64,000 nucleotides of DNA, taken from positions 2,241,561 to 2,305,560 of the forward strand of contig OX639973.1 of NCBI GenBank assembly GCA_951828385.1, in the 5' to 3' direction. Numbering within the stretch: position 1 is the stretch's first letter; every line of letters begins with the position of its first letter. This DNA is from an uncultured Poribacteria bacterium (GTDB lineage: Bacteria > Poribacteria > WGA-4E > WGA-3G). Positions 7,213 to 61,352 of this stretch are shown piece after piece. The translations under genes and the position numbers were made by a program. The notes beneath the pieces were generated by a model. That model was given only the letters and a program-made list of their open reading frames with translations. It ran no database searches and was not told the origin of the DNA.

Positions 7213-7574
7213 ATTTTAGGTGTCAATTACCCCATCTGACGGTATACGCGTTGACCCTTGAGTCCCCTATCCGCGTGATACTCATGTCAAGCTGCTATTT
7301 ATGATAAATAACCGTTTTAGAACTTTACACGACAGCAACGCTATCACGAGCTTAGCAACCAAAGCCTCTGTAGCAACCTTATACTCTGGTATTTAATTAT
7401 ACTACAAATTTAATTTAAAGGAAAGTCAAATTATTTTTCAAAATAGATATAGATTAATTGCGGCGTACTCGTCCAAACGCGATCAGCATTCCTAACCGCC
7501 TGGGAACCAAAAAAAAGCGCGAAACCTGATAAATCCTTAAAACTAAATGCGCCTAATTATTGATGAAATTTACC

Positions 7575-7603
7575 TTGCTTTCTTAACAAAGTTATAGTAT
7601 AAT
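7575..7603 (+). promoter_or_regulatory. Candidate sigma70-type promoter for uvrA (TTGCTT-17 bp-TATAAT). A GTTA-N12-TAAC palindrome overlaps the -10.
   Basis: Read directly: ttgctt(7575-7580) tcttaacaaagttatag tataat(7598-7603), about 50 nt upstream of the uvrA SD AGGAGG. Lies in an AT-rich 440-bp divergent intergenic region. Confidence 0.4.
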
Positions 7604-7652
7604 TAGTAACAGAAAATTCTCTATTTTTTAACAACAAAATTAGGAGGCATGT

Positions 7653-20472: not shown

Positions 20473-20739
20473 GATTTTTACCCTCAATATTCGGATTCTG
20501 ATTGGTAGCAGTATATCACATTTGGGTTTTTGTATATTCGTAAAATCTATACTCTTACGTAAAGATAATCTAAAACCAAATCGTACTATCATAGTTCAGA
20601 ACCATTCAATTCTCCATTTTTCGCTCGAATCTTCACCACAAGGCCCGGTAGGTGCGGTTTTGGATGCACTTTACTGAGGCACATGGATAAAAACATATCC
20701 AAAAACCAGTATTCAGGAGATCCTTTTGTGGATTGTCGC

Positions 20740-44412: not shown

Positions 44413-46041
44413 TTACTTCCGAATTAACATCTTACGCGTCGCAGTAAACTGCCCAGCTTTGAGCGTATAGAAATAGACTCCACTTGCGACTGGCTCTCCG
44501 TGAGCATTCTTACCATCCCAATAGGCAGCACGGTCTCTACTCTGATAGACACCTGCAGGCATTTCGCCTAACGGCAAACTCCGAACTAAAGCACCGTTCG
44601 CAGTATGAATGAAGACAGCGACTTCCGCTGGTTGCGCCAACTGATAAGGTATCCAAGTCTCTGGATTGAAGGGGTTGGGGTAGTTTGCCAAGAGCACTGT
44701 TTTTGGGGGTGTCGGTCGTGCCATCCGTGTCCCAACTGCCAAAAAGCGTTCTAAGATCGCGATCGTCTGTGGATCCGCACCGACATCCTGTGCCTCTTGG
44801 ATCCACTGCTGGACATCTTCTGCAGTGAAGGAGAAATCGTGTAGATGCTGTGCAAGAATAGGAGCCGCTTGGGAATCTACTGGTGCTTGGGCATCCACTG
44901 CCTTAGCAACAACAATGAGGTCTTCAATATTAACGACCCCATCTTTGTTGACATCCGCGCGTGGGTTTGCGCCATCTACGACAGTTTTTCCGTAGTTCTC
45001 TCCCACCTCAATAATGTCAAGATATGTGACACTACCGTCCCCTGTTATATCAACCGCTGCGAGTGGCTCCCACAAGCGGATTGTGTCGTCATCACTGCCA
45101 CTCACAAGAAGTGACCCATCAGAGTTCCAAGCAATTGTATTAACACTAGCGGTATGCCCTTTCAGAGTGGCTTTGTGTGCGCCAGTGGTGGAGTCCCATA
45201 AGCGGATGGTATCATCGCTACTGCCACTGGCAAGGATTGCCTCGGTTGGATGGAATGCCAACGTATGGACGTTACCGGTATGCCCTTCCAAGACGTGCAG
45301 CGGGGAATCCGTGTCCGTTGGGTCCCAAATACGGATGGTGTCATCGTTGCTTGCACTCGCGAGCAGCGTTCCATCAGGACTCCACGCAACCGATCTAACA
45401 GTATGCGTATGTCCGCGAAGTGTAGCAATGTTGGCACCGTTGTCTGGGTTCCACAAACGGACGGTACGGTCTCTACTTGCACTGGCGAGCAGCGTTCCAT
45501 CAGGACTCCACGCAACCGACTCGACATCATTCCGATGCCCCCGCAGTGTCCGAACGGGTCGACTTTTCCATGCGTCCCATGTTAAATCCCAGATACGGAT
45601 TGTGTCGTCATTGCTCCCGCTGGCAAGGATGGAGCTCCCCGGTTTAAAGGACAGCGTATTGACAGTGTTTGTATGTCCTGTGAGGTAACCTCTTATGTCT
45701 CCGTCATCTGTGTAAGACATCCCAATATAAGGGCGGAAAAAGAGTCCGCCGGCATAAACGACAAAACGCGAGTCATGCGATGAGATCGCAATATCAGAGA
45801 TTAAGAAGAGATCCACTTCGGTATGCCAAGGTTGTGCACCCGTGTCAAGATCCCAAAAGCGAAGGTCGCTATCGCCTCCCACACTGATAAGTGTGCTATC
45901 GTCTTTGAATGCCACTGCAGAGACATGAATTTTATGCCCGCTGAGCGTCCGAGTATGGAAGTACTCTTCGGCAGCGGCAAAAGGTAAAGTAACTGTGAAA
46001 ATGGACAGTAGCGTTAAAATCAAAAGGCTTATTTTTTTCAT
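44413..46041 (-). CDS. Secreted WD40 beta-propeller protein with a dockerin-like repeat and a T9SS-type (Por_Secre_tail/FlgD-Ig-like) C-terminal domain
   Basis: Signal peptide, about 7 WD40 repeats (LRGHTHTVRSVAWSPDGTLLASASNDDTIRIWD etc.), dockerin-like DVNKDGVVNIEDLIVVAKAV, C-terminal NYPNPFNPETWIPYQL...GVYFYTLKAG. Confidence 0.8.
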   Translation of the reverse strand: MKKISLLILTLLSIFTVTLPFAAAEEYFHTRTLSGHKIHVSAVAFKDDSTLISVGGDSDLRFWDLDTGAQPWHTEVDLFLISDIAISSHDSRFVVYAGGLFFRPYIGMSYTDDGDIRGYLTGHTNTVNTLSFKPGSSILASGSNDDTIRIWDLTWDAWKSRPVRTLRGHRNDVESVAWSPDGTLLASASRDRTVRLWNPDNGANIATLRGHTHTVRSVAWSPDGTLLASASNDDTIRIWDPTDTDSPLHVLEGHTGNVHTLAFHPTEAILASGSSDDTIRLWDSTTGAHKATLKGHTASVNTIAWNSDGSLLVSGSDDDTIRLWEPLAAVDITGDGSVTYLDIIEVGENYGKTVVDGANPRADVNKDGVVNIEDLIVVAKAVDAQAPVDSQAAPILAQHLHDFSFTAEDVQQWIQEAQDVGADPQTIAILERFLAVGTRMARPTPPKTVLLANYPNPFNPETWIPYQLAQPAEVAVFIHTANGALVRSLPLGEMPAGVYQSRDRAAYWDGKNAHGEPVASGVYFYTLKAGQFTATRKMLIRK

Positions 46042-46120
46042 CTGAATGCATCCTTTCCCGAAAACACTTTCGGGTGTAGATAATTTATGTTGCCCTAAAT
46101 TGCTCAAACTTTCAGTCGTT

Positions 46121-46179
46121 GTTTAATGATACAATTTGAAGGTCAAAAAGGTGCATAATGGGAAAAAAAATTGAATGAG
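46121..46179 (-). promoter_or_regulatory. Conserved ~55-bp upstream element, copy A (between the ECF-fusion 1 stop and the WD40 gene start)
   Basis: gtttaatgatacaatttgaaggtcaaaaaggtgcataatgggaaaaaaaattgaatgag. Matches copy B 49280-49338 at about 50 of 59 positions. On the coding (minus) strand it carries TGCACC-18-TATCAT. Confidence 0.55.
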
Positions 46180-46220: not shown

Positions 46221-49200
46221 TCAATCGTTTTTCTTCTCAAGCGCGGCATAAAACATCCCGCTCCGTTCGGTAACAATATAAAGCCTGTTACGCTTGACAG
46301 CAACAGAAATGACGCGGCTTGGTACGTTTGGCGAGATCTGTTCCCATCTGCCCCGAGTATCCAATTGATAGGCACCCGTATCGCCAGCACCATAAACGGT
46401 TATATCATCTACGGCAACTCGGGCTATGACGGTGTGTGTACCACCTTTATCGGTGATTGCGCGCCAATTTTCACCGTCTGCCGATGTTAAGACCCCCGCG
46501 TCTGTGGCGACATAAACCGTTGAACCCGCAAAAACAATATCGTTGAAATGTTCAAATCGAAGTGGCAGTGTTGCGGTCAGGTCTTTCCATGTGTTCCCGC
46601 TATCAAACGATCGGAACAGATGTCCATCCCGTTTGCCAACGTAGACGGTTTCACCTGAAACAGCCAGAACGAAATGATCGGGCCCCTCATGGTTAGTAGG
46701 TGCGTCAATGTCTACCAGCCCAGTGTCGAACCATTCAGGTTCGCCGCGTCTCCACCGCAGGAGCCGCCCCTGATATTCCACATAGAACGTATCACCGCTG
46801 ACTGCAAACGCGCTGTGAGATGCTATGGACTCGCGGGTTGTGTCTATCGATTTATCGGCTTTCTCAGGATCGTTAGGGGCAGCGTCGGGTATATTTCTTT
46901 CCGACATCTCTTGTGATGCAGTTTTTGGAGGCTCAATAGAAAGATTTTCACCCAAAACAGGGGCTTCTGGCATAAGCACCAGCACACCGCCATTCTTAGA
47001 AAGATGGAAGATGCGCTGCTCGGTACCTTCTATGTCTACGGAAAGTGCGGTGCCGATGCAGTAGAGTTTATCGTCAGAAATTGCCAGCTGCGAAGAACGG
47101 AGTAGAAGACCGACAGCCAATACCGATCCTAATTCTGGTGTTAATTGATCAGGGCTGAATCGCAGGTCTCTCCATGACATCCCACCGTCGGTGGATTTCG
47201 CGATATTTGTACCGGTATAGGCGTAGAGTGCGTTTTTGAATGCGACTAAGTTAGATATCTGGGTTCCGACCATGCCTGTCATAAACGGATGCCACGATTC
47301 GCCAGCATCGGTTGAACGGATAAGTCCAAAAGGACTGGCTTTGAACAGGATATTTTCGTTCATGCCAATAGCGGGGAATACACTCAGCATAAACGAATTC
47401 ATCATTGAAAGCGGATCCAATTTTTTGTATCCGTGGTTTGTCCATGTTTCGCCGCCGTCAGTCGATCGGCATTGGAAGCCGGTGTATCCCAATGCCCAAA
47501 GCGTTTTTCCAGCAGTAAGGACCTTAATGCCCGGGGATAGCATCGTCAAGACTGGCTCGCTTGTAGGTGTGATTTCAGTCCACGAATCGCCGAAATCGGT
47601 TGACCGGAAAATTTCCCACATAGACTGCCCGGCAGACACCTCTTCGCGTATTTCATCCTCTTTAAAGGCTCCCAAGTCGGGACCTGTCCCGACATAGAGG
47701 TTGCTTTCAGAAACCGCTAAGGAGTGGATAGCCTTAGTGGTCGTTAGCGGCAATTTTTCCCACATATCCATTGCCGAATTATGCCCTGGATTGATACGGT
47801 AGAGTCCCTGATTCGTTCCGATAAACATTGTGTTTTCAAGAGTAGCCAAAGCAAAGATTTTTCTATCCGTCACTTCACCACCGAGGGGTGTCCACTGCTG
47901 TCCCCTATCTTCGGATCGGAAAACACCTTTATCTCTCAGCAGGAGGTATAAGGCTTCATCCGTTACGGCCAATGCGACAGCAATACCTTCGGGGCGGGTG
48001 CCAATCGGCTCCCACATCTCGCCGCTATCGGTTGAGATAAGTACTTTATCATCAGAAATAAGATAAAGGGTTCCGTTTTGCTCCGCCATCGGTATCATGG
48101 GGGGTGCCTCCGTAGGTGTCTCCAAAGTTGTTGTAGGGCTGAGGAACGTCCATGCTCGTGTGTCTGGCGTTAATCTATAGACACCGAGACGCGAAGCGGC
48201 GTAGATATCGCCATTTGAACTTACCAGTAAGCCGCCTACGGGGCCGCTCGCTGGTACGCTCGCGGGTCTCCACTGCTGTGGTGTTGTCAGTGGTTCCTTT
48301 TCTATCTGCGCGACAGCAGGGACAACAGGCTCTGAAACTTGCGGCCCGGCACCGCTGCCCCGACCCGTGGTATCAGAACGTCCGGCTTGGTTCCGTAGGT
48401 CCGGTTCCGCCTGCGTATCAATAACAATGGGTGTGTCAATAATTTCAACAGTGGTTTCCGATTGGGCATTCAAGTTGTAAGGTCTCTGAAAGCGACTCAG
48501 GTATTGGGACCCGACACCGATCATCAGCATTATAAGAATGGTAGCGGTGCCAAAAGCGATCCAGGGTAGCAACGGTTTTCCAACCGAAGGTGGTGCTGGT
48601 TTGATGTCGGCAACTTGCTGCATAATACGCTCAATGAAATTGGCAGGCATCTGGACGTTTCCAAGCGTTTCGCTAATCAGGTGCTCTTCGGCTTGTAAAC
48701 GCTCCCGTGCCCGGCGAAGCCGACTTTTAATGGTGTTCACCGATACCCCTAAGAAATTGCCAATCTCCTTCGCCGTCATTTCACCGAGGTAGTAGAGCGT
48801 TACCACCGTCCGTTCACTCTCTGGCAATGTTTCCAGAAGCTCTTTGACGATTTCGTGGCGATGTTCCATCGCTTCCGCCTCCCGTTGCTCCGATACATAA
48901 CGTCTATAAGAAAATGCCTCTACGTCCGCTACAGATGTGTCATCCAGGGATTGCATCGCGGGTTTGTTGCTTTGATGCCACCTCTTGCAAAGATTACTCG
49001 CAATCACATAAAGCCATCCAGCAAACTGGCTGGGATTCCTCAGCCTTGCAAGGTTTTTGTATGCTTGGAGGAAGGCATCTTGGGCAATCTCTTCAGCGAT
49101 GTGAAAATCGCCAATCTTCCGCCACGCCAGCGCGTGAACGCTTTTTTGGTACTTTTGGACCAAAGCACTAAATGCCGCTTCATCACCCGACAAAATTCTG

Positions 49201-49229
49201 TGAATCAGTTGAACATCGTTTTCCACCAT
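46221..49229 (-). CDS. Membrane-tethered ECF sigma factor fused, via one TM helix, to a large extracytoplasmic BNR-repeat beta-propeller domain (paralog 1)
   Basis: N-terminal ~190 aa has sigma70 regions 2 and 4 (HIAEEIAQDAFLQAYKNL...; LGEMTAKEIGNFLGVSVNTIKSRLRRARERL). TM helix PLLPWIAFGTATILIMLMIGV. At least 8 Sx(D/S)xGxxW BNR motifs in the remaining ~800 aa. Start taken at MVENDVQ (49229) by homology with paralog 2. Confidence 0.8.
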   Translation of the reverse strand: MVENDVQLIHRILSGDEAAFSALVQKYQKSVHALAWRKIGDFHIAEEIAQDAFLQAYKNLARLRNPSQFAGWLYVIASNLCKRWHQSNKPAMQSLDDTSVADVEAFSYRRYVSEQREAEAMEHRHEIVKELLETLPESERTVVTLYYLGEMTAKEIGNFLGVSVNTIKSRLRRARERLQAEEHLISETLGNVQMPANFIERIMQQVADIKPAPPSVGKPLLPWIAFGTATILIMLMIGVGSQYLSRFQRPYNLNAQSETTVEIIDTPIVIDTQAEPDLRNQAGRSDTTGRGSGAGPQVSEPVVPAVAQIEKEPLTTPQQWRPASVPASGPVGGLLVSSNGDIYAASRLGVYRLTPDTRAWTFLSPTTTLETPTEAPPMIPMAEQNGTLYLISDDKVLISTDSGEMWEPIGTRPEGIAVALAVTDEALYLLLRDKGVFRSEDRGQQWTPLGGEVTDRKIFALATLENTMFIGTNQGLYRINPGHNSAMDMWEKLPLTTTKAIHSLAVSESNLYVGTGPDLGAFKEDEIREEVSAGQSMWEIFRSTDFGDSWTEITPTSEPVLTMLSPGIKVLTAGKTLWALGYTGFQCRSTDGGETWTNHGYKKLDPLSMMNSFMLSVFPAIGMNENILFKASPFGLIRSTDAGESWHPFMTGMVGTQISNLVAFKNALYAYTGTNIAKSTDGGMSWRDLRFSPDQLTPELGSVLAVGLLLRSSQLAISDDKLYCIGTALSVDIEGTEQRIFHLSKNGGVLVLMPEAPVLGENLSIEPPKTASQEMSERNIPDAAPNDPEKADKSIDTTRESIASHSAFAVSGDTFYVEYQGRLLRWRRGEPEWFDTGLVDIDAPTNHEGPDHFVLAVSGETVYVGKRDGHLFRSFDSGNTWKDLTATLPLRFEHFNDIVFAGSTVYVATDAGVLTSADGENWRAITDKGGTHTVIARVAVDDITVYGAGDTGAYQLDTRGRWEQISPNVPSRVISVAVKRNRLYIVTERSGMFYAALEKKND

Positions 49230-49279
49230 CAGCATTCTCCATGTCTCACGCATAAACGTGATTGTGTTTACATTCAAAT

Positions 49280-49338
49280 TGTTAATGATACAATTTTAAG
49301 GCGGAAAGGGTGCATGATTTGAAAAAAAATTGATACCC
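49280..49338 (-). promoter_or_regulatory. Conserved ~55-bp upstream element, copy B (about 55-110 nt upstream of the ECF-fusion 1 start)
   Basis: tgttaatgatacaattttaaggcggaaagggtgcatgatttgaaaaaaaattgataccc. See copies A and C. Confidence 0.55.
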
Positions 49339-49684: not shown

Positions 49685-50596
49685 TCAAAACGCTTCTGAC
49701 TTGACTTGGCCCCATGTCGTTGTTAAAGAGGTATCGGGACGAATTTCAAGTCCACCTTCAGGATTGCGATTAAGATCAACACCGGTTCCACCAATCACAG
49801 CAGCACCATTCATGCCGATGAGGGTCTTCCCATTCCCAGACGTATCTTCAAAGCGATCCGCGCCTTCCTTGTCATTGAAATCCCAGAGTGCTAACGTGTG
49901 TGCATCAGCAAAAAAACGAGGCGGTGGATTAAACGGATTGTCGCCCTGTTCGGCGCAGTCATACCGAGCGATATTTGAAAACCTTATCGCATCAATTTCG
50001 CCTTGAAAACTACTTACTTGGAATAACAACGCACCGTTAGGTGCCACAAACTTATCCTCACCATATCCGCCTACGACGAAATCTTGAACGCCTTCAGGTC
50101 TATTGATATGCAAAGACACCCTGTCCACAAGAGGAAGTCTCCGGCCTTGACTAATTCGATTGTTGGACGCATGACAAAGCATGCCATTCTTGAAAATGAT
50201 TGCTATATAGTTCCATTGATCTTTCTCGACTGCACTATCAGTTCCTGCAAGTCCGTCAGCTCTGTCTCCTGAAAGATATGCCTGACGATAACTGCAAAGT
50301 TGATTTTTTTCGAGTAGACACTGATCTCTTGCCTTTAATCCGATGGAAACTTGCTGAGTGAGAATAAGGTCTTTATCTTTTTGCTTCGGTTCATCTTTCG
50401 GATAGAACCATACTTCAACAGTAAACGCGTGGGTGCCTTCCGGGAAAATATGCCCATGTTCCGCAAAAGGGAGTATTGCATAGTCATCTTCACCATCCAA
50501 CGACAAAACACCACCGGACGGCTCGAAAGAAAGAACAGGTACAACTAAGCTGAACAATAACACCGTACTGAGTAAGCACTTAAAATTAATAAACAT
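49685..50596 (-). CDS. Secreted LamG/concanavalin-A-like lectin-fold protein with a C-terminal ...TTTWGQVK tail
   Basis: Signal peptide. LamG_3-like hallmarks (SLDGEDDYAILP...FTVEVWFYP...WNYIAIIFKNG). SD GAAGGAGAG. Confidence 0.65.
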   Translation of the reverse strand: MFINFKCLLSTVLLFSLVVPVLSFEPSGGVLSLDGEDDYAILPFAEHGHIFPEGTHAFTVEVWFYPKDEPKQKDKDLILTQQVSIGLKARDQCLLEKNQLCSYRQAYLSGDRADGLAGTDSAVEKDQWNYIAIIFKNGMLCHASNNRISQGRRLPLVDRVSLHINRPEGVQDFVVGGYGEDKFVAPNGALLFQVSSFQGEIDAIRFSNIARYDCAEQGDNPFNPPPRFFADAHTLALWDFNDKEGADRFEDTSGNGKTLIGMNGAAVIGGTGVDLNRNPEGGLEIRPDTSLTTTWGQVKSEAF

Positions 50597-50697: not shown

Positions 50698-51121
50698 CTA
50701 AAAGTTTGTGGTACGAATGTGTCTATTTATTTTAGGATTCACTATAACATATTTTTTCAGTTGTCCCCACGTCACTGCCAGTTTACCTTGGGGTTGAACC
50801 GATAAATTGCCGTGGTTCGGCACCTCTTCGCCCACAAAAAGAGAGTGTTCTGAACTAAAGGCAATCCATTGGCTGTCCGGAGACCAAGCCGGTCTTTTGC
50901 AGCCCCCTCGGTTCGTCAGCCGCTTCACATTTCCGCCATCTGCGTCTATTCTGTAGATGTCCATCTCCCCGTTGCGTTCGGCGATGAATGCGATCCACTT
51001 CCCATTCGGAGACCAAGCGGGCCATATATCTCTACTCTCGTGGAACGTCAACTGACGTTCTACATTTGTTCTCACGTCCCTCACATAAAAATAGAATTGT
51101 TACAATGATTAGAAATTTCAT
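50698..51121 (-). CDS. Exported PD40/TolB-like repeat protein (paralog a), frameshifted at a T5 run between the lipoprotein-type signal peptide and the PD40 domain. C-terminal ...VTWGQLKK tail.
   Basis: The ORF-track part 50698-51084 starts at GTG. Upstream in another frame, SD GGAGG + ATG 51119-51121 encodes MKFLIIVTILFLCEG... (lipobox-like). Deleting one T of tatttttat restores a continuous ORF. PD40 motifs WPAWSPNGKWIAF and PAWSPDSQWIAF. Confidence 0.6.
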
Positions 51122-51300: not shown

Positions 51301-53184
51301 CTAAAACGCATTTGCGACCATCACAAGGTCCAAAATGTTCACAACACCATCAAAGTTCAAATCAAATTTCAAATCGGAATCTGTTGAACTACCAAAAGCG
51401 TTCGCAACGATCACAAGGTCCAAAATGTTCACAACACCATCAAAGTTCAAATCTTCACGAGGCGTATTCACCATTTGTTCTAATTCTTCCCAAAACTCAA
51501 CATTTGAAGAGGTGCGATGCAGTATGGAAATCGCTTGTTGTATTTCCAGATGATGCTCAAAATAATACCGGATTGTCGGAAGCACCGGTACCTGTTTATA
51601 CGTCTTAATATGTGCATTCAATATTTCCAGTTCTTGTGCTTTATATCTGTCCCCCAAATAGGCAAAAGTACCGCTATAAGCAAGGGACCACTGCGAAAAT
51701 AAGAAATCCGTAATCGGGTGCGGATCTCCGTAATCCAAATTGTCCGCGGTCCCATAAAAAGCGACATACGGAGCTGTCACCGCGTGAATATATTCGCCAG
51801 AAAAAACAATATCTGGCATCGCTTCAATAAGTTCTTCATGTAAAAGCATGTTCCCTTGAATAGGTGTCAATCCATCAATTGTAGCGTGATTTCTGATAAG
51901 CCCGTTAGCGTCAAGATGGATGGCATCAATGTTATATGTCTCTTGCACGTTTTTCAATAATTGCACGAAATATTCTCTATAACTTGAAGCTGCAGGATTT
52001 ATATAGGCGGGGCCTCCCAGTTCTAATTCCCATCCCTGTATGTTTCCATCGCTATCTCGATAGAAATAGGGTTCCCACTCAGCGTAACGCGGGTGGTCTT
52101 GAGCAACAAACGGAAAACCTGCATAGACCATTACCCTAAACCCGCGAGCCTTTGCCTCAGATACAAACGCCCCGAAGTGTTCCTGTCTCCAACCGCCGCG
52201 ACAGTAAATTAACACATTTTGCGGGTTGATCTGTTGTGGTAAAAAATCTAACATTCTAATGTAGTTACGAGTCAGTGAACAGTACATAACAACGAGTTGA
52301 ATATCTTTAACCCACGCCGGCTTATGAGCGAGACGCGATGCATTTCGCTCCATCATCCCTTGACGATACCTTTCCGCAGGCACCTGCCAATCACCCCTAT
52401 ATGTATTAAATCTCCAAATTGCGGAGGTAATATGTTGACGATTTTCAAAAGGAAGAAAATTGTGCGTGTTAAAAGCAATAGCGAAGAGATTTGGCTTTTT
52501 TCTCTCTGGCCACTGACCGAGTGCTTTAAATTGATCTGTTTCATCCTCACTCATCACAAAACATCCGCCCAATGTTCCTTGCACGACGGCAAGAGGGGCT
52601 TCCCATAGACCCGGATACGTCCAATACAAATCCATCGTGTGTTGTCCATTCATTATGTTTCCGCTGCGCCCTGGCACAATCGGAGATACCTGATCATAAT
52701 CTAAATTTCCGATTCCCCATCCGATAGTGGAAATTCCTGTTTGATCAGAAAAACCTTCCTGTCTAATTATTAAATCTCCAGTGAGCACCTCAATAATCAC
52801 CCACATAATAAGTGTGCTCTGATGCCACCGAGCCGTCAGTTTCGCCGCTAAGGGTGAAATCTTTTCAACTTCCAAGGCATCAGCACCACCTATTTCCCAC
52901 TCAGGTTCCAAGTAATCTTCGCCGTCTATTTCTGACTCATGGAACCGGGGCCCACGCATCCCTGAAAGTCTTGCATCTGGTCTTCCTGAAAGTGTATACG
53001 TTTCTTGAGTGAGTTTGTTATGCACATGTATGACGTTACCATTTTTAAACCGCACCTGATAGCGATCCGTCTCAGCGAAAACTTCACCATCTTCACTGAT
53101 CGTCAAAGTGTTTGACAACGCAGCGGGTACTAAAACAAACTGCAATATCAGCATATAAACACATTTTGTCCAAACATTTTTCAT
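51301..53184 (-). CDS. Secreted putative glycoside-hydrolase-like (TIM-barrel-type, family unassigned) protein with two C-terminal dockerin repeats
   Basis: Signal peptide MKNVWTKCVYMLILQFVLVPAALS. Catalytic-looking central region. C-terminal DLNFDGVVNILDLVIVANAF x2 (dockerin type-I-like). Confidence 0.65.
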   Translation of the reverse strand: MKNVWTKCVYMLILQFVLVPAALSNTLTISEDGEVFAETDRYQVRFKNGNVIHVHNKLTQETYTLSGRPDARLSGMRGPRFHESEIDGEDYLEPEWEIGGADALEVEKISPLAAKLTARWHQSTLIMWVIIEVLTGDLIIRQEGFSDQTGISTIGWGIGNLDYDQVSPIVPGRSGNIMNGQHTMDLYWTYPGLWEAPLAVVQGTLGGCFVMSEDETDQFKALGQWPERKKPNLFAIAFNTHNFLPFENRQHITSAIWRFNTYRGDWQVPAERYRQGMMERNASRLAHKPAWVKDIQLVVMYCSLTRNYIRMLDFLPQQINPQNVLIYCRGGWRQEHFGAFVSEAKARGFRVMVYAGFPFVAQDHPRYAEWEPYFYRDSDGNIQGWELELGGPAYINPAASSYREYFVQLLKNVQETYNIDAIHLDANGLIRNHATIDGLTPIQGNMLLHEELIEAMPDIVFSGEYIHAVTAPYVAFYGTADNLDYGDPHPITDFLFSQWSLAYSGTFAYLGDRYKAQELEILNAHIKTYKQVPVLPTIRYYFEHHLEIQQAISILHRTSSNVEFWEELEQMVNTPREDLNFDGVVNILDLVIVANAFGSSTDSDLKFDLNFDGVVNILDLVMVANAF

Positions 53185-53218
53185 AAATGCATCTCTTTCT
53201 TGTGTTATTTCTCTTTCT

Positions 53219-55248
53219 CTATTCAAACGCATTCGCTACAATCACCAAGTCCTGTATATTGACAACGCCATCACCATTTATATCCGGTGCCGTTTCCCCA
53301 AACGCATTTGCGACGATGACCAAATCCTGGATATTCACGACACCATCACCATTAACATCCGCAGTGGGAGGCGTTTCCGACTTCAAATAGATTTCGCCAT
53401 CCAAATCTGCCAACGTATGCTGGCGTTGATTCTCTACACCGCTTGCCCAGCCGGAGACCTCCTGCGGAAGTTCTATCTCCTGTTCCTTACCAGAGCGATT
53501 ATACACCGCCCAACCATTGGTGAATTCCCGGATAAACAACCCCTCTCGGTTCTCATAAAGCTGCGCTTTCGTTTCATTGCCACCCACCGGACGACCGAGG
53601 TCGGCGTTCCAGAAATCGTACCAGTAAAACTCATCATAATGGAACGTATAAACCGATGCATTGGAATGCGTGAGTGCCATTGTCGTGAAAAACCTGTTGC
53701 GTTGCTTTGCTTCGGGACCGTCGATCGGTTTGAAAGGTGACAACTCACCTTCTAAAAGATTTAATGTTGGTTTCCTCAGCTTCGTTCATTCCACAAAAGC
53801 GCATCTTCTATGTCACGGATCCCAGACAAGGTATAGCCCTCAGGTTCACCCGGGTGAAAGTCATAAAGATCACGTCCTGTTTCCATGTAGATACCGTTGA
53901 CATAGGGTGCCCAACGGCGCTGCAGTTTACGGCGGTTGTTGTTAACGAGTATAAAAAAGTCATCGGGGACAACTTCGCGAATGCGTCGGAGGATTGTGTC
54001 CATCGCAATAGATTCTTCTTCTGCGGTATAGATTCCCTGTAGCCTCTTTTTTCCTTCGCCCCAATGGTCAAAAAAGATACCATCATAGAGTCCACACTCG
54101 CTAATCGCTTTTGCCTGTTGCACAATTTGTTCTATGACAGCAGGTTTCGTGAAGTCAATAAGATGATCTATTAGTTCTTCCATGGCATGCCTGCGCCAAA
54201 CTGATGTTAGACGGTTTCCTTCTTTATCGCGTAGCCAACCGTCCCAATCTTCGCCATAAAAATCGGGGTGCCCGCTCTCAAAATACAGCCCTACAAGCAA
54301 AATCATATTAGGATTTCGGCGAAGGACTTCGGTGTGTGTTTCTATCATTTTATCCATCTGTCCTGTCCGTAAGGTTGCGTTTATACCCTCAGGAGACAGC
54401 CATATTGTTCTCACATCATTTCCGAGTGGGCCAAAAGGGTGCACTCCAAAAATAAAGTCAAACACCGTGAAAATTTCTATAGTGTGTTGATCGTGCTCCG
54501 CAAGCGTGTGGGATTTTACCCAATTAGAAGGAAAGTTTCTGTTTTGAATGCGTTCTGCCAAAGGGAGTTTGTACGAAAAATCGTCAAATAAAGATAAACA
54601 CCATCTCTCAAATGAGTTTTTTATTGCTCCTGCGAAATGCTTGATCTGGGAAAAATCCTCAATAGGGTTGTCTATTATTTCCAAAACTTTGAGTTTGGTT
54701 AGACCGGTTATTGCGGATAGGTCTGAAACCTGATTCTCGCGCAATAGCAATACTTCTAAATTTATCAGTCCCGCCAGGGGTGTTAGGTCTGAAATCTGAT
54801 TCTCGCTCAATTGCAATTCTTTTAAATTTATCAGTCCAGTGAGGGGTGTTAGGTCTGAAATCTGGGTGTCATAAAATTCGAGCGTGTGTAGTTTGACCAG
54901 TCCAGCGAGGGGCGTTAGGTCTGAAATGTTACATCGATTGATACTTAGAAACTTCAAATTAACGGCGTGTTGGAGACCTTCAAGGTTCTCAATTTCATCA
55001 CGTTCGCTTATAAGCGTGTGTAATCGTTGCATGTCCGCGATTGTTAGGCTTTCCACGTCCAACGCTTCTGATACAATTCTCCGTAGGTGTGGATCCGGCA
55101 TCCAGTCTTGGACATCTTCTGCATGGACGGAAGCATTATAGACAAGTATGCCCACAATCGACGCGAGGAACAACTGAAACCAAAATGATTTACGATATAT
55201 TTCTTTCATTGTCATAAGATAATCTATAATCTCCTTTTCAAAACGCAT
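53219..55248 (-). pseudogene. Disrupted paralog of the LRR-hydrolase-dockerin gene (two ORF fragments, 53776-55248 and 53219-53743, separated by a frameshift)
   Basis: Fragment 1 ends ...ALLWNERS*. The -1 frame then continues as KLRKPTLNLLEGELSPFKPIDG..., colinear with ...TLLWSEKNFREPQINALEGWGLESEPLDSP... of the intact paralog 55238-57268. A single nucleotide near 53787-53790 restores the frame. Confidence 0.65.
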
Positions 55249-57229
55249 TCGCTACAATCACTAAATCCTGTATATTCACAACGCCATCACCATTCAGATC
55301 AGGTGCCGCTTCCCCAAACGCATTCGCCACAATAACTAAATCCAGTACATTCACCGTGCCATCACCATTGACATCCGCAGTAGGAGGCGTTTCCGACTTC
55401 AAATAGATTTCGCCATCCAAATCTGCCAACGTATGCCGGCGTTGATGCTCCACACCGCTCGACCAGCCAGAGACCGTTTCCGCAAATTCAATCTGTTGTT
55501 CGGAGCCGGACCGATTATACACTGCCCAGCCGTTAGTAAACTCCCGGATAAACAACCCCTCGCGATCCTCATAAAACTGCCCTTTAGTTTCATCACCACC
55601 CACCGGCCGACCGAGGGGTGCCTCGTAGAAGCGGTACCAGTAATGTTGATGTTGGTGGTCATGGGATGTTCCGATGGCGTGTTCTTCTGAATGTCCTGCA
55701 TAGAGTTCATAAGCGTGCGTGTGTACGGGACCGTTAATCCCTGTTACATACTGGACGTAACCGTCGGAATGCGTCAAATTCAGCGTTGTGAAAACACGCA
55801 TCCACTGCCGGTTTTTAGGACTGTCAAGCGGTTCGCTCTCAAGTCCCCATCCCTCAAGGGCATTTATTTGTGGTTCTCGGAAGTTCTTCTCTGACCAGAG
55901 TAACGTGTTTTCAATTTCGCGCAGTCCTGCGTATGTGTAACCACTTTTGTAATCCCGTACGGTTTCCATAAATGTTCCATTCACATAGGAAGCCCATCTT
56001 GGAATTTTACCTCGATTCGTATTTACCATTATCAGAAAGTTATCACCCACTGCCTTGCGAATTCCCTTGAGAATTCTGTCTCGTGCAGTGTGTTCTTCCT
56101 CTAAAGTCTTGGAAGCTTCGAGTCTTGGCTGTTCATTCCAGTGATCGAGAAATATACCGTCATATAACCCGCATTTTGAAACTTCAATTGCCTGTTGGAC
56201 GAACATATCTTGGATTTCAGGATGTGTATAATCAATGAGATATACACCGTTATTCCCGTCCTCCACCCTCTTACCTGATGTGTCTCGCAACCAGTACTCC
56301 CAATCTTCAGGATACTCATTTGGATGTCCATAGTAGTAACGGATGACAGCAAGAAATATCATATTGGGGTTTTGAGAAAGCAGCGCGTTTCTTGTTGACT
56401 TTGCGCGTTCTATATCTCCAATTAGTTTCCAACCGTTGGACGTAGATTCCCATTGAGTACCAAAGTAATCCGGGTAAGAAAAATATAGATGGTGGTATGT
56501 GAGTAGTTCGCTCCATGTTCCTGGCAAGTTGATAATGTTATGCCATGCTGCAAATACCCGCGGTGTGTTTATGTTCTTCAACCTAACTTCGACAGAATCT
56601 CGAGGTAAAGCACATATATTGTGGGATGTGAGATTCAATGCAATCAATTCTGTAACATCTGCGCTGTTTCCATAAGTCTGCACATTTTGAAGTCTTGGGA
56701 GTTTCAAAATCGGTGTAAAATCTTCTATCTGATTTTCTTGCAACTTCAATTCTTCCAGGTTTATTAACCCTGCGAGCGGGGCAATATCCGAGATGTGATT
56801 CTTAGACAACTTTAAGACCCGTAAGTTCTCAAGCCCCACAAGCGGTGTCAAATCCGACACTTCACTTTTAACAATAGCCAAGAATTCTAAGTTCTCAAGC
56901 CCCGCAAGTGGTGCTAAATCTGAGACTTCACTTCTGTCGATAACCAAGACTCTAAGATTCACGGCATACTCAAGTCCTCTTAAACTCCTAATCTCGTGTT
57001 CTATTTCTATTAAGATAAGATTATGTAATCCTGTCATGTCTCCAGGATGTATAGGTATCTCATCAGGGATGCCGAGTTCTTCACGGACAGCCTGCCGAAG
57101 GTTTGGATCGGGCATCCAATCCTCGGCATCTTCTGCATAGGTAAAAGCATTATAGACAAGTATGCTCACAACAGACGCGAGGAGCAACTGAAACCACAAG
57201 GATTTACGATATATTTTTTTCATTGGCAT
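55238..57229 (-). CDS. Secreted protein with N-terminal leucine-rich repeats (internalin-like), a central hydrolase-like domain and two C-terminal dockerin repeats
   Basis: Signal/TM segment KSLWFQLLLASVVSILVYNAFTYA. LRRs (VSDLAPLAGLENLEFLAIVKSEVSDLTPLVGLENLRVLKLSKNHISDIAPLAGLINLEEL). Motif GLYDGIFLDHWNE. Dockerins DVNGDGTVNVLDLVIVANAF and DLNGDGVVNIQDLVIVANAF. Start codon uncertain (M14 or M16). Confidence 0.7.
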   Translation of the reverse strand: MPMKKIYRKSLWFQLLLASVVSILVYNAFTYAEDAEDWMPDPNLRQAVREELGIPDEIPIHPGDMTGLHNLILIEIEHEIRSLRGLEYAVNLRVLVIDRSEVSDLAPLAGLENLEFLAIVKSEVSDLTPLVGLENLRVLKLSKNHISDIAPLAGLINLEELKLQENQIEDFTPILKLPRLQNVQTYGNSADVTELIALNLTSHNICALPRDSVEVRLKNINTPRVFAAWHNIINLPGTWSELLTYHHLYFSYPDYFGTQWESTSNGWKLIGDIERAKSTRNALLSQNPNMIFLAVIRYYYGHPNEYPEDWEYWLRDTSGKRVEDGNNGVYLIDYTHPEIQDMFVQQAIEVSKCGLYDGIFLDHWNEQPRLEASKTLEEEHTARDRILKGIRKAVGDNFLIMVNTNRGKIPRWASYVNGTFMETVRDYKSGYTYAGLREIENTLLWSEKNFREPQINALEGWGLESEPLDSPKNRQWMRVFTTLNLTHSDGYVQYVTGINGPVHTHAYELYAGHSEEHAIGTSHDHQHQHYWYRFYEAPLGRPVGGDETKGQFYEDREGLFIREFTNGWAVYNRSGSEQQIEFAETVSGWSSGVEHQRRHTLADLDGEIYLKSETPPTADVNGDGTVNVLDLVIVANAFGEAAPDLNGDGVVNIQDLVIVANAF

Positions 57230-57379
57230 AGGTATAACTAAAGTTTGGACAATCGATTTGTGTATCAAGTAGCGTTTTCAAGGGGCTTGGTATTTTTCTG
57301 TGAGTTCTGTACCCAGGCAAACGCGGAAAAAACTATAACAGGTTAGTTACACAAGAGACACAGCCTAACAGGAGACCAT

Positions 57380-57663: not shown

Positions 57664-60603
57664 CTATTTACGAGATAAGTTGTCTCCCGCTTCCGCAAGC
57701 GGAATCTGAAACATCCCGTTGTGTCTGGTAACAATATAAAGTGTGTCGTTTTTAACAGCGAGTGAGAGGACTTTATCTGGCACGCTTGGAAAAATCTGTT
57801 CCGATTGTCTACGGTCCTCTAAACGATAGACACCGGCATCACCAGCCCCATAAATTGTGGTACCATCAACAGCAAATCTGTCTATAACGATACGCTCGCC
57901 CGCGGTATCGGTCAGGACACGCCAATATGCGCCGGTTTGTGAAGCTAAAATACCTCTGTCCGTTGCGACGTAAGCCGTTGAATCGACAAAAACGATCTCC
58001 TTGAAATGGGTAAAACGTAGGGGCAGGCTGGGGGTAATGTCGCGCCAACTGTCGCCGCCATCAAGCGACTGAAAGAGCCTACCGTCTCGCTTACCGACGT
58101 AGACGGTTTCCGCTGAGACCGCCAATTTGAACCCATTTTTCGAGCCGTCATCAGCCCGTTTCCCGGTATCTATTAATCCGGTATTTTTCCATTCAGGATC
58201 ACTCGGTTTCCAATTAAAGAGTTTCCGCTTGTATTCCACGTAGAAAGTATCACCACTGATTGCAAACGCACCGGCTCTCTCATAGTTTTCACGAAAGGAC
58301 AAATCCCTCATCAATTTACGGTCCTTTTCAGGATCACCAGAAAAGGACATTCCCTGTGCTACCGCAATCTCCTTTAGCACCGCAGGAGACAGATTTCTCT
58401 TACCAAAATCGGGTACGCCTTGAACAGGGATAAACGTATTATCACCAGATAAATGGAAGATACGGAGGTTGTCTCGCCCAGACTCAATAGCATAAAGAAC
58501 GTCGTCAACAATCACAAATTTTGAATCAGTATCGAAGTCGGTGTTAGGAGATTCTCTTTTTGAGGGTTCAGATGCTTGTTCGGCGTAATCAACTGGAACA
58601 GGTGTCCAAGATTCGCCGTCATCAGCAGATTGAACCATATTGCCGTTAGCATGTACATAGAGGCTATTATTGAATACCACCAGATCTCGTGCTCCGGTGC
58701 CGACCATGCCGTCCATAAAATGATGCCACGATTCACCCGCGTCGGTTGTGCGATAGAGACCGGAGTTTCCGGTCTTGTAGAAGGTATTTTTATCGAATGC
58801 TAAATAGGCATAGGTATTTGAGACAGTGCCAAGATTTGTCCAAGTTATCCCGTCATCTTTTGAACAAAATAGCCTGAGACCGCGTGCTAAAATTGTTTCG
58901 CCTCTAACAGCCATTGCCATAGCAGATGCTGCTATAAGGGGATATTTTTTGTCTGTAGGCGTTATCTCGGTCCACGACGTTCCGAGATCGTTTGATTTGA
59001 AAATTCTGCCTGCCCGTGACAGATCAAGTCGCATGTGATCCTCAACTTTGCGACCTGTTCCGACATAGAGAGTATCTTCAAAGGCCACCAAGTCGTGTAC
59101 GGCTCTGGTTGTATCTACCGGTAACTGTTCCCAAACATCGGCGTTGAGGCGGTAGAGGCCTCTGTCTGTGCCAGTGAATACCGTCTCTTTAATCGCAGCG
59201 AGTTTGTAAATTTCTCTACCCGTTAATCCCGTGTTCACGGGTGTCCAGTGTTTTCCAGCATCGGTGGATCGGAAAACGCCTCTCTTCCAAAGGGCGAGAT
59301 ACATCGTAACATTCGCGGGTGCGTTGCGTCCATCTGCTGCATCTACCACGATGAGTTCAGCAGGGTGTCCTTCTGGCCGGTGCCCTAATGTATTCCACGT
59401 CTCGCCATCATCGGTTGAAGCTAATAGTTCATTGCCAGCGATGATATAGAGGGTGCTTGCATGCTCTGCTATAGGCACTCGCGGCATTTCGTTTGGAATA
59501 TTGACGTTTACGGGTGTCCAGAGAGTTGCATCTGCTGTTAACCTGTAGATGCCTATTGACGAATTAACGTAGAGTGTTTTGTTAGATGTCTCAAAGATGT
59601 CAAACACGAATCCGCCTGGCGGTCCGCCCATCTGTGTCCACGGCGCAGTCGAAAATGTAGCGGAGAAATCCGCCGTTGTTGTGGTTACGACAGCCGCCTC
59701 AGCAGTCTGTAAGCCGGTCCCGATGTTTTTGGTGGCGGTCGTCGTGCGTCCGACCTGATTTCGGACAGCTGGTTTGGAAAGCAGATGGAGCATGATAGGT
59801 GCGTCAACGATTTCAACCGTCGGTTCAGATTGTGCTTCAAAACTGTATGGCTGCTGGAAGCGCGCGAGATACTGATGATGCGTACCGAGCATCAAAACTA
59901 TCAAAAGCACAGCCGCGCCAAAAGCCGCCCACGGTAGCAACGGTTTCGCGACCTGCGGCGGTGTCAGTTTCAGATCGGCGACGTGCCGCATGATGTGCTC
60001 TGTTAGGTGAGTGGGTAATTGGAAATTCCCAAGCATCTCACGAATTAAGGATTCTTCGTTCCGCGCCTGTAAACGCTTCCGCGCCCGTTGAAGCCGACTC
60101 TTGATTGTGTTCGCGGATACGCCTAAGAAGTTGCCAATTTCTTTGGCAGTCATCTCGCCGAGATAGTGGAGCGTTACGACGGTACGTTCACTTTCGGGTA
60201 GTTTTTTCAGGAGTTCCTTAACGATTTCGTAGCGGCGTTCCGCGGCTTCCGTTTCTCGTTGCTCTAATACATAATGTTTATAAGAAGATTTTTCTACTTC
60301 TGTGCGAGATATTTTTTCCAGTGATAGCATTGGCGGTTTTTTATTTTTGAACCACCGAATGCACATCCGATTCGTAATTACATATAACCACCCTGCAAAT
60401 TGGTTGGGGTTTTGGAGTGTCGTGAGTTTTTTGTGGACTTGGAGGAAGGTATCTTGTGTAATCTCTTCAGCGATATGAAAATCGCCAACTTTCCGCCACG
60501 CGAGTGCGTGGACACCCTTTTGGTATTTTCGGACTAAAGCAGTGAACGCCGCCTCATCACCTGCTAAGGTTCTCTGGATTAATTGAACATCATTTTCTAC
60601 CAT
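57664..60603 (-). CDS. Membrane-tethered ECF sigma factor fused to a BNR-repeat beta-propeller extracytoplasmic domain (paralog 2)
   Basis: N-terminus MVENDVQLIQRTLAGDEAAFTALVRKYQKGVHALAWRKVGDFHIAEEITQDTFLQ... is highly similar to paralog 1. TM PLLPWAAFGAAVLLIVLMLG. BNR motifs STDDGETW, STDAGKHW, SNDLGTSW, SKDDGITW, TTDAGESW, SADDGESW, SLDGGDSW. Its SD AAAAAGGAG lies inside the upstream PD40b tail. Confidence 0.8.
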   Translation of the reverse strand: MVENDVQLIQRTLAGDEAAFTALVRKYQKGVHALAWRKVGDFHIAEEITQDTFLQVHKKLTTLQNPNQFAGWLYVITNRMCIRWFKNKKPPMLSLEKISRTEVEKSSYKHYVLEQRETEAAERRYEIVKELLKKLPESERTVVTLHYLGEMTAKEIGNFLGVSANTIKSRLQRARKRLQARNEESLIREMLGNFQLPTHLTEHIMRHVADLKLTPPQVAKPLLPWAAFGAAVLLIVLMLGTHHQYLARFQQPYSFEAQSEPTVEIVDAPIMLHLLSKPAVRNQVGRTTTATKNIGTGLQTAEAAVVTTTTADFSATFSTAPWTQMGGPPGGFVFDIFETSNKTLYVNSSIGIYRLTADATLWTPVNVNIPNEMPRVPIAEHASTLYIIAGNELLASTDDGETWNTLGHRPEGHPAELIVVDAADGRNAPANVTMYLALWKRGVFRSTDAGKHWTPVNTGLTGREIYKLAAIKETVFTGTDRGLYRLNADVWEQLPVDTTRAVHDLVAFEDTLYVGTGRKVEDHMRLDLSRAGRIFKSNDLGTSWTEITPTDKKYPLIAASAMAMAVRGETILARGLRLFCSKDDGITWTNLGTVSNTYAYLAFDKNTFYKTGNSGLYRTTDAGESWHHFMDGMVGTGARDLVVFNNSLYVHANGNMVQSADDGESWTPVPVDYAEQASEPSKRESPNTDFDTDSKFVIVDDVLYAIESGRDNLRIFHLSGDNTFIPVQGVPDFGKRNLSPAVLKEIAVAQGMSFSGDPEKDRKLMRDLSFRENYERAGAFAISGDTFYVEYKRKLFNWKPSDPEWKNTGLIDTGKRADDGSKNGFKLAVSAETVYVGKRDGRLFQSLDGGDSWRDITPSLPLRFTHFKEIVFVDSTAYVATDRGILASQTGAYWRVLTDTAGERIVIDRFAVDGTTIYGAGDAGVYRLEDRRQSEQIFPSVPDKVLSLAVKNDTLYIVTRHNGMFQIPLAEAGDNLSRK

Positions 60604-61211
60604 CCGGATTCTCCTTTTTCAGTTGTCCCCAGGTCGTCGATAGCAACGCCGGCTGCGGCGAGACCGGCAACGCATACGCTGGATTAAACCAATCCGCGTT
60701 GGCGTTATCACCCCGGCGCGTGAGTTGTTCTGGAACACCGTCGTCCGAAGCGATTTTGAAGAGTTGTCTGAAACCACGAACCCGTTTATCGTAAATGAGT
60801 TCATTCCCGTGCGGTGCCCAGGCAGGATTAGACGCGAAGTTGCCGCCTCCATCTGCAATCTTCCGGAGTCCGCTACCATCTTGGTTCACAACATAGACCC
60901 CCATAGTGTGTCCTATCTCTTGCCTACCTGTCCAAAAAAAGGCTATCTGCGCGCTATTGGGTGCCCAAGCTGGGTCAAACATCCCAATCTTCCCCGGAAG
61001 AATTTTCTCTTCTACATGCGTTTGTAGATTAATAATCTCGACCCTGACGTTCGGTGCTTGGAGATTTCCGTTTTCAGCCCAAACGAACTTGGCTGCCATA
61101 AAGGCTATCTCAGAACCGTTAGGAGACCACGCATGCTTTGGCAAAAAGTGGACGCATCATTCCACACATCAGCATCCAGAAGATGATAGAAAAAACCAAC
61201 TTCAATCTCAT
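60590..61211 (-). CDS. Exported PD40/TolB-like repeat protein (paralog b), frameshifted at a T5 run after the signal peptide. C-terminal ...STTWGQLKK tail. Its 3' end overlaps the ECF-fusion 2 start by 14 nt.
   Basis: The ORF-track part 60590-61144 starts at TTG. Upstream, GGAGGAATCGGT-ATG (61209-61211) encodes MRLKLVFSIIFWMLMCGMMRPLFAKAC... in the +1 frame. Removing one T of ctttttgcc fuses the two. PD40 motifs AWSPNGSEIAF, PAWAPNSAQIAF, PAWAPHGNELIY. Confidence 0.6.
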
Positions 61212-61292: not shown

Positions 61293-61352
61293 CCAATTAT
61301 TAAAGAGACTATTTTTAAGGGCAAAGGGTGCATAATTTGAAAAAGTGGATAG
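61293..61352 (-). promoter_or_regulatory. Conserved ~55-bp upstream element, copy C (about 80-140 nt upstream of the PD40b signal-peptide ATG)
   Basis: ccaattattaaagagactatttttaagggcaaagggtgcataatttgaaaaagtggatag. Shares the core TTTTAAGG-N4-AAAGGGTGCATNATTTGAAAAA with copies A and B. Confidence 0.5.

Follow-up and report, generated by a model that had tools for sequence, protein, structure and literature searches.

A poribacterial ECF sigma factor joined to a single membrane helix and a GH74-like double-propeller ectodomain

Introduction

Sigma factors with extracytoplasmic function (ECF) constitute the third major bacterial signalling system, and the branch in which the sigma factor is fused to its own sensor is the least understood. 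A gene in the 64,000-nt stretch of poribacterial DNA analyzed here (positions 2,241,561 to 2,305,560 of contig OX639973.1; hereafter the window) belongs to this branch, and it raises the question of how a sigma factor that is joined to a membrane protein would be silenced and then put to use. The gene occupies 46221..49229 and encodes a 1002-amino-acid (aa) protein consisting of an ECF sigma domain, one transmembrane (TM) helix and a large double propeller. By a narrow balance of probability, we incline to the view that this protein is a one-polypeptide transmembrane signalling device of Candidatus Poribacteria, which has no built-in inhibitor domain and would act through proteolytic release of its sigma domain. 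Positions given below are those of the window, and features lie on the minus strand unless a plus sign is shown.

Architecture of the fused protein

The list of open reading frames (ORFs) gave an extent of 46221..49277 for this gene, with the stop codon at 46221-46223. We placed the translation start most likely at the Met of MVENDVQ at 49229, because this codon is preceded, at a distance of 6 nt, by a GGAGA ribosome-binding site that is kept in orthologs, because a paralog described below begins with the identical MVENDVQ (BLASTP comparison), and because the alternative TTG start at 49277 falls inside the family promoter motif.

Pfam Sigma70_ECF matched residues 7-182. Within this span, region 2 comprised residues 23-88 (48966..49163; Sigma70_r2, 47 bits) and region 4 comprised residues 126-178 (48696..48854; Sigma70_r4_2, 56 bits, and Sigma70_r4), the latter containing the helix-turn-helix predicted to read the -35 element. 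No Pfam match to region 3 or region 1 was obtained in the protein at E ≤ 1. That is, regions 2 and 4 were present and regions 1.1 and 3 had no match, which is the domain content of ECF (group 4) sigma factors. The general NCBIfam model for this class, TIGR02937 (sigma70-ECF), exceeded its cutoff of 42.9 with a score of 96 bits, and the equivalog models (SigW, RpoE, SigM and others) all fell under their cutoffs. The nearest solved structures were those of SigW (E 5e-25), AlgU and sigmaE. In an AlphaFold2 (AF2) model of residues 1-280, the predicted local distance difference test score (pLDDT) was 77-88 over region 2 and 76-91 over region 4. An earlier reading of this DNA, made from the letters alone (the original prediction), held that its case would fall if the N-terminal part did not score as sigma70 regions 2 and 4; both Pfam and TIGR02937 scored it as such. 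We conclude that the N-terminal 182 residues form a functional-looking ECF sigma factor of the SigW/RpoE/AlgU type. Two residues of region 2 deserve mention: R83, which the alignment to SigW places where SigW has its conserved region 2.4 Asp, and C81, the one conserved Cys of the family protein.

Hydropathy placed a single TM helix at residues 218-240 (48510..48578), the one quoted in the original prediction. The Kyte-Doolittle value was 2.06 at residues ~218-240 and 1.44 in the next-best segment elsewhere, so that this was the sole strongly hydrophobic stretch, and exactly one TM segment was found at the same place in 85 of 96 family copies. The claimed combination of an ECF sigma factor, one TM helix and a large BNR ectodomain was thus borne out by Pfam, NCBIfam, hydropathy and motif count, and we regard the anatomy of the protein as solid. 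The size given for the BNR domain, ~800 aa, needed trimming: the region after the helix measures 762 aa, of which residues ~321-1002 are propeller.

Linker, membrane helix and juxtamembrane segment

The most distinctive feature of the protein, which the original prediction had missed, is that it has no anti-sigma domain between region 4 and the membrane. Only a 35-aa cytoplasmic linker (residues 183-217; 48579..48683) separates the two, and one short helix is predicted in it, at residues 198-208. Searches for anti-sigma families in Pfam and NCBIfam at E ≤ 1, FecR and zf-HC2 included, gave no match in the protein. A class I anti-sigma four-helix domain (~80-90 aa) was absent from the AF2 models, which contained just the one short helix, undocked; in both the full-length model and that of residues 1-280, the linker was of low confidence and did not dock onto sigma2 or sigma4. 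The linker contains one His and zero Cys. In an alignment of 65 closer homologs of 50-95% identity (alignment A1), its conserved residues were E187, L189, F198, E200, I202, Q205, A207 and K210, and two prolines at the cytoplasmic edge of the helix, P219 and P222 (Pro-x-x-Pro), were invariant.

On the far side of the helix, the conservation profile and consensus string delimited an extracytoplasmic juxtamembrane segment at residues 241-300 (48330..48509). Its first ~45 residues were conserved at 0.72-0.78, near the level of the sigma domains, versus 0.5-0.66 for the propeller. AF2 gave a pLDDT <50 here and no folded domain, and a low-complexity spacer follows between this segment and the propeller. 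We consider residues 241-300 a candidate site-1 cleavage or regulatory segment. With regard to topology, we infer that the N-terminus lies inside and the C-terminus outside, because the protein has no signal peptide, because a sigma domain needs the cytoplasm, and because unfused homologs of the propeller (P0133, P0158, P0177) carry signal-peptide or lipoprotein-like N-termini.

The propeller ectodomain

Residues 321-1002 (46224..48269) constitute a GH74-like tandem beta-propeller, as judged from Pfam (BNR, Sortilin-Vps10, DUF6242, PSII_BNR), AF2 and Foldseek. Strict S-x-D-x-G-x-x-W Asp boxes numbered seven (residues 399, 439, 543, 589, 639, 679 and 874), and when the protein was shuffled 20,000 times, such boxes averaged 0.006 per shuffle and never exceeded 2. 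Where at least eight BNR motifs had been claimed, we therefore count seven strict ones and an eighth, SADGENW at residue 916, that is degenerate. In the full-length AF2 model, most of residues 320-760 and 808-996 had a pLDDT of 80-92, and between these two ranges lies a variable, low-confidence insert (residues 761-805; 46815-46949), evident in both the model and the conservation profile. We counted about 14 four-stranded blades, a count made from the DSSP string of the model and not from its coordinates.

Foldseek against the PDB returned GH74 xyloglucanases as the best matches (E 1e-23, target-normalised TM-score 0.42-0.55, identity 14-16%), followed by the double-propeller periplasmic sensors BT4673 and BT4663 (E 1e-17 to 1e-20). 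A profile of 51 family ectodomains likewise matched the GH74 enzyme Xgh74A in the PDB at E 2e-19. Foldseek, the family profile and the ~14 blades thus agree on the tandem seven-bladed fold of GH74, in support of the earlier suggestion of two seven-bladed propellers.

The likeness to GH74 held for the fold and not for the enzyme. The sequences of 2cn2 and its mutant 2cn3 read ARADIGG and ARAAIGG, and the residue that differs, which we take to be the GH74 catalytic Asp, aligns to R347 of our protein. Among 84 family sequences this column held P34/S15/R9/Q9/H4/K4, with Asp outside these six commonest residues; of the pair of catalytic Asp that GH74 enzymes carry in the cleft between their propellers, only this first one was compared, the second being outside the alignment. 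GH74 enzyme identity was rejected on this replacement. Because the ectodomain lacks the GH74 catalytic Asp, we read it as a non-catalytic, ligand-binding sensor and not as an enzyme. Its ligand, if GH74 and the Bacteroides sensors are a guide, is probably a glycan, possibly one from the sponge matrix. The NCBIfam model 'F510_1955 family glycosylhydrolase' scored 122 bits for the protein, under its cutoff of 175.

The comparison with sortilin/Vps10 that had been offered beside that with GH74 fared poorly. The family profile reached E ~1e-6 over one ~125-residue stretch, and the Pfam match covers profile positions 2-60 of 446 alone, where a Vps10 domain would comprise the complete propeller together with its 10CC module; we rejected a sortilin-like receptor. 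Sortilin itself is a single 10-bladed propeller.

A family expanded in Poribacteria

A paralog of 979 aa, 48% identical over its full length and of the same architecture by BLASTP and Pfam, lies 8 kb away at 57664..60603 and had gone unnoticed in the original prediction. More than 120 full-length homolog clusters in the protein database, at 54-94% identity, also have this architecture. The named clusters belong to Candidatus Poribacteria, as does the most divergent of them, and are annotated just as 'sigma-70 family RNA polymerase sigma factor'. A survey of species-representative genomes (one genome per species) yielded at least 585 sites that encode the fused protein, and the best 77 loci all came from Poribacteria metagenome-assembled genomes (MAGs) or chromosomes, some of them complete; several loci were from the same genome, and 19 of the 77 carried 2-3 copies. 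With clustering at 50%, 183 clusters matched the ectodomain at E ≤ 1e-30, and among the 150 ectodomain-matching clusters listed ~40-50 were full-length fusions; a few unfused forms had the signal-peptide or lipoprotein-like N-termini mentioned above. The family is large, and it is specific to and expanded in Poribacteria. Such a protein had been called rare and unusual, a description that must be qualified for this phylum, where at least 585 copies exist and a quarter of the best loci hold more than one. A literature search (Poribacteria with sigma, ECF or BNR; membrane-anchored sigma factors), of incomplete coverage, gave no description of the family.

Conservation over 84 members of 39-86% identity was highest in sigma4 (0.83) and sigma2 (0.77), followed by the first ~45 extracytoplasmic residues and then by the propeller; the insert at residues 761-805 was free to vary. 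Strong selection on the fusion is shown by the at least 585 copies, by the single TM segment kept in 85 of 96, and by the fact that the sigma domains and the juxtamembrane segment are the most conserved parts.

Splits were seen in a few of the copies from long-read assemblies. At positions 5916-9102 of locus L078, a tandem copy was called as two overlapping genes, a 252-aa sigma factor and an 823-aa remainder. This copy is broken inside region 4, either as a pseudogene or by a long-read frameshift, and several ~825-aa ORFs elsewhere look similar.

A shared promoter motif and a putative regulon

We found a candidate promoter, overlooked in the original prediction, that is common to the target gene, the operon of its paralog and the adjoining gene for a WD40 protein. 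The motif is a block of ~54 nt made up of a T-tract, ATGCA(C/A)C, 18 nt that include AAAT, (C/T)(G/A)TC, and ATTAAT. Its copy before the target (49276..49329; position weight matrix (PWM) score 67.5 bits) consists of a T-tract, ATGCACC as the -35-like element, 18 nt, TGTATC as the -10-like element, and ATTAAC. A second copy with the same TGTATC variant (46117..46170; 51.5 bits) sits beyond the target's stop codon, in the 113 nt that separate it from the WD40 gene. A third (61294..61347; 53.4 bits) lies 5' of an operon that probably comprises the paralog and a PD40/TolB-like ORF (60590..61144; ORF list and a weak Pfam PD40 match), the latter overlapping the start of the paralog by 14 nt. These were exactly the sites that the PWM found in the 64-kb window, all three being on the coding strand and adjoining family genes, and five shuffled windows gave 0. 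At the motif sites, a scan of the coding strand gave no consensus sigma-70 promoter.

The motif recurs throughout the family. Of 68 non-redundant upstream regions, 23 contained the dyad ATGCA...AAAT, a number that did not rise above 9 in shuffles. The instances fall into a fixed register with no need of gaps, and the block is kept in orthologs and in divergent paralogs. In 1.39 Mb of family loci we counted 109 motif sites, of which 58 precede family genes and 51 precede other genes, and 50 of the latter are co-oriented with the sigma gene. The other genes include those for an ABC-2 permease (at least 14 times), WD40, Kelch, LamG, DUF1080, Trypsin+TPR, glycosyltransferase and DUF3108-like proteins, and several encode membrane or signal-peptide-bearing proteins. 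In the window, the putative regulon member is the secreted WD40-repeat protein encoded directly downstream of the target (44413..46043; Pfam WD40, 230 bits; motif upstream). Its N-terminus is signal-peptide-like (MKKISLLILTLLSIFTVTLPFAAA), it contains dockerin-like Ca-binding repeats, and its C-terminal tail is of the sorting type (PNPFNPETWIPYQL...). A WD40 gene stands behind the motif also in loci L002 and L015 and, with longer spacing, in L001.

The -10 variant paired with the region 2.4 residue that corresponds to R83. All 22 copies with TATC had K or R at this position, all 21 with CGTC had D, A or T, and all 9 with TGTC had N. The target itself pairs R83 with TATC, and the promoter of the neighbouring WD40 gene also has TATC. 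This covariation would be expected if the sigma of each paralog recognised its promoter directly, with the reservation that shared ancestry of the subfamilies confounds it. We also observed that N59 partitions likewise in the 84-sequence alignment, with N accompanying TATC, and K or R accompanying CGTC and TGTC.

ECF promoters have as their hallmark AAC at -35 and CGT at -10 (PMC8103513). The motif resembles this hallmark, and exactly so in some subfamilies (GCAAC...CGTC). We infer that the motif is read by the family's own sigma. The promoter arrangement of a family gene looks autoregulatory, as is usual among ECF sigma factors. Against such a reading, in addition to the shared ancestry mentioned above, the target's own elements, GCACC and TATC, deviate from AAC and CGT, the 18-nt spacer exceeds that of a typical ECF promoter by 1-2 nt, and another sigma factor could read the motif or a regulator could bind it.

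A perfect inverted repeat, AAATTGT-N7-ACAATTT (49276-49296), overlaps the -10-like element of the target. It is kept in close orthologs alone and may serve a separate regulator as its operator.

Proposed mechanism and alternatives

How, then, might this protein signal? The scheme that we favor starts from a sigma domain that one helix keeps tethered at the cytoplasmic membrane's inner face. An altered state of the ectodomain would allow site-1 cleavage within the conserved juxtamembrane segment or close to it, after which a site-2 intramembrane protease would cut inside the helix. The freed sigma would join core RNA polymerase and transcribe from the family-specific promoter, which stands before its own gene, giving positive autoregulation, and before nearby genes, several of them for membrane or signal-peptide proteins. 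We favor proteolysis because the fused ECF sigma factor IutY works in this way, because the SigI/RsgI systems use regulated intramembrane proteolysis (RIP), and because the juxtamembrane segment and the Pro-x-x-Pro look like recognition elements. By this analogy the mechanism is plausible, and autoregulated signalling in which the sigma domain is set free, as happens in IutY, seems to us to have the somewhat better claim to be true than to be false, the whole of the release step being the part that we supply.

Several observations weigh against it. The signature of a site-2 protease (HExxH + NxxPxxxLDG) was not found in the 1.39 Mb of family-gene flanks, a sample that is uninformative on this point, and no recognisable site-1 motif occurs in the target. 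Residues 241-320 contain no Asn-Pro, unlike the SEAL domains of RsgI. The positive-inside rule is no guide to the assumed topology, with K+R of 1.6 on the N side versus 1.75 on the C side. Finally, when no anti-sigma domain is present, the silencing of the tethered sigma lacks an obvious cause, and proteolysis may be unneeded. We also considered autoproteolysis of the SEAL type and rejected it for the want of both an Asn-Pro and a folded juxtamembrane domain (AF2 pLDDT <50).

Hybrid two-component systems such as BT4663 and BT4673 signal without proteolysis. Since these are the structural analogs of the ectodomain, and since nothing obvious masks the sigma domain and no recognisable cleavage motif or autoproteolytic domain was seen, the sigma might act while still tethered: a ligand or dimerisation would alter its availability, and RNA polymerase would be recruited at the membrane, much as ToxR/CadC-type regulators act while membrane-bound. 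Such an arrangement could couple transcription to the export of secreted products, which would suit the several motif-preceded genes for membrane or signal-peptide proteins. However, a ~35-residue linker would have to hold a very large holoenzyme-DNA complex at the membrane, no tethered-active sigma factor was found in the searchable literature, IutY, the sole characterised fused ECF, requires cleavage, and the strength with which the juxtamembrane segment and the Pro-x-x-Pro are conserved is more readily put down to protease recognition; we regard tethered action as unlikely on balance, though as a serious competitor of release. The original prediction had offered these same two mechanisms, and they are still the two live ones. 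A bolder version supposes that membrane-anchored active sigmas, gated by the propeller ligand, couple the transcription of secreted WD40, Kelch and TPR genes to export, and that the paralogs, each with its own -10/region 2.4 pairing, are insulated channels for cues from the host matrix. This we think distinctly unlikely. The sigma domain might instead be controlled by conformation, its sigma2 and sigma4 being held inactive by the linker helix (residues 198-208) or by an unlinked cytoplasmic anti-sigma and the ectodomain relieving this allosterically. The conserved residues of the linker agree with that idea, as do ECF41 and ECF238, whose C-terminal extensions act through conformational change (PMC8999054), but AF2 leaves the helix undocked, with low confidence there, 35 residues are far below the length of a class I anti-sigma domain, and the neighbourhoods hold no conserved partner gene. 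Conformational control we regard as quite improbable.

Two further possibilities would deny the protein a regulatory role or deny its existence. The GH74-like fold, the sub-cutoff glycosylhydrolase score reported above, and the glycoside-hydrolase-like and dockerin genes close by would fit a protein that is mainly a membrane-anchored surface factor for binding or cleaving glycans, with a sigma part that is a relic. That reading is hard to reconcile with sigma2 and sigma4 being the most conserved parts across paralogs of 39-86% identity, with a cognate promoter whose -10 variant covaries with the region 2.4 residue, or with the missing GH74 catalytic Asp, and we judge it very improbable. The split long-read copies (L078 and the several ~825-aa ORFs) might suggest that the fusion is an artefact of assembly or gene calling, in which a sigma gene was joined to an anti-sigma gene. 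Yet these copies break inside region 4, away from any domain boundary, and the ORF is unbroken in the target, the paralog, the more than 120 clusters and the 77 loci of independent MAGs and chromosomes. The artefact is refuted by this recurrence in independent assemblies, and its likelihood is negligible.

Proteolytic release of the sigma domain thus stays our preferred account. The family may be seen as a natural minimal version of a fused sensor, and it asks whether tethering alone silences a sigma factor. The candidate promoter and the covariation of the R83-type residue with the -10 element are testable with purified sigma domain and core polymerase. Poribacteria are uncultivated sponge symbionts, and their 'eukaryote-like' proteins are thought to mediate interaction with the host. 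Secreted WD40, Kelch and TPR proteins of this 'eukaryote-like' kind are part of the predicted regulon, and the family may therefore give a handle on their control.

Neighbouring genes

Just upstream of the target lie genes for a LamG-like (Laminin_G_3) secreted protein (49685-50596) and a PD40-repeat fragment (50698-51084). Genes for WD40, LamG and PD40 proteins recur loosely near family members, at 15-18 of 77 loci (LamG/PD40 at 16-18, PD40-like at 18). When 15 neighbours from the window were compared by tblastn with the 77 loci, synteny was confined to close orthologs. No conserved protease, anti-sigma or partner gene was found in the neighbourhoods of the 77 loci.

Between the two paralogs, 51301-57268 (−) holds genes for leucine-rich-repeat, GHL15-/GHL10-like putative glycoside hydrolase and dockerin-domain proteins, none of them preceded by the motif. 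A protease with Peptidase_S41 and PDZ domains (CtpA/Prc type), of the class responsible for the trimming of IutY, is encoded 30 kb off at 15509-16960 (+), with no motif and no evidence of linkage. At 62881-63987 (−), an ORF that runs to the window edge matches the C-terminal specificity domain of a Type ISP restriction enzyme (348 bits). Long ORFs with no Pfam match at E 1e-5 occur at 18580-20592 (−; 670 aa), 24121-25620 (+; 499 aa) and 30563-31510 (−; 315 aa), and another, with none at E 1e-3, at 61398-62771 (−; 457 aa).

Comparison with known systems

The closest precedent in mechanism is IutY of Pseudomonas putida (ECF243), a sigma/anti-sigma fusion that serves cell-surface signalling and the sole fused ECF with a demonstrated mechanism, in which trimming by Prc and then cleavage by RseP free the active sigma (PMC5411451; PMC8999054). 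In both proteins a single polypeptide joins a cytoplasmic ECF sigma through one TM helix to a periplasmic domain. IutY, however, has a FecR-type anti-sigma domain, where the poribacterial protein gives no FecR match and has only 35 residues, and it needs an outer-membrane TonB-dependent receptor, for which we saw no gene among the neighbouring window ORFs examined. The sigma domain of IutY is FecI-like, whereas that of the poribacterial protein is SigW/RpoE-like and is attached to a 680-aa double-propeller ectodomain.

Other fused ECFs come from Actinobacteria and Planctomycetes. ECF48, ECF52 and ECF53 of Actinobacteria resemble our protein in having a membrane-spanning C-terminal extension; in SCO4117 of Streptomyces coelicolor (ECF52) this ends in a carbohydrate-binding domain, and proteolytic activation has been proposed (PMC5826349; PMC8999054). 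These groups have a zinc-finger (ZAS-like, HxxxCxxC) module, a proline-rich spacer and extensions of up to ~400 residues, in contrast to the Cys-free linker, the ~820-residue extension, and the different sensor fold and phylum of the poribacterial protein. ECF57 of Planctomycetes carries extensions of WD40-like repeats and occurs in 5.3 copies per planctomycetal genome (PMC7826278; PMC8999054). It resembles our family in the fusion of an ECF to beta-propeller-type repeats and in having several copies per genome. As described, ECF57 is set apart by repeats that are WD40-like and serve protein interaction, and by two conserved Cys that link sigma2 and sigma4; the poribacterial protein has Asp-box/BNR repeats, a TM helix before them, and one conserved Cys (C81).

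Among systems in which the sigma factor and the sensor are separate proteins, SigI/RsgI of Clostridium thermocellum and Bacillus is activated by RIP via RseP/RasP (PMC10328401; PMC12203970), and the juxtamembrane SEAL domain of RsgI cleaves itself at an Asn-Pro hairpin (PMC10556640). The likeness lies in several paralogous units of sigma factor and membrane sensor, varied extracellular carbohydrate-sensing modules, a conserved juxtamembrane segment, and the control of dockerin-bearing secreted proteins. SigI/RsgI differs in that its sigma is of the SigI type and its sensor undergoes SEAL autocleavage, whereas the poribacterial protein is a fused ECF that shows neither an Asn-Pro nor a folded domain in its juxtamembrane segment.

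The ectodomain has its own parallels. BT4663 and BT4673 of Bacteroides thetaiotaomicron also join an external tandem propeller covalently to a transcriptional output, although that output is made of kinase, receiver and AraC domains and not of a sigma factor; BT4663 senses heparin and heparan sulphate. The low TM-scores to these proteins (0.2-0.3) mean that the two propellers are oriented differently relative to each other, and we treat them as analogs, not relatives. The GH74 xyloglucanases (Clostridium thermocellum Xgh74A, 2cn2/2cn3) likewise have two tandem propellers with Asp boxes, but they are secreted enzymes and not membrane-tethered regulators, and their first catalytic Asp is replaced in the poribacterial family.

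Fused transmembrane ECFs are thus already known from IutY and ECF48/52/53, and propeller-type extensions from ECF57. What is new in the poribacterial family is the combination of a fused sigma factor with no anti-sigma module, a BNR double-propeller, an expansion within one phylum, and the pairing of promoter variants with a sigma residue.

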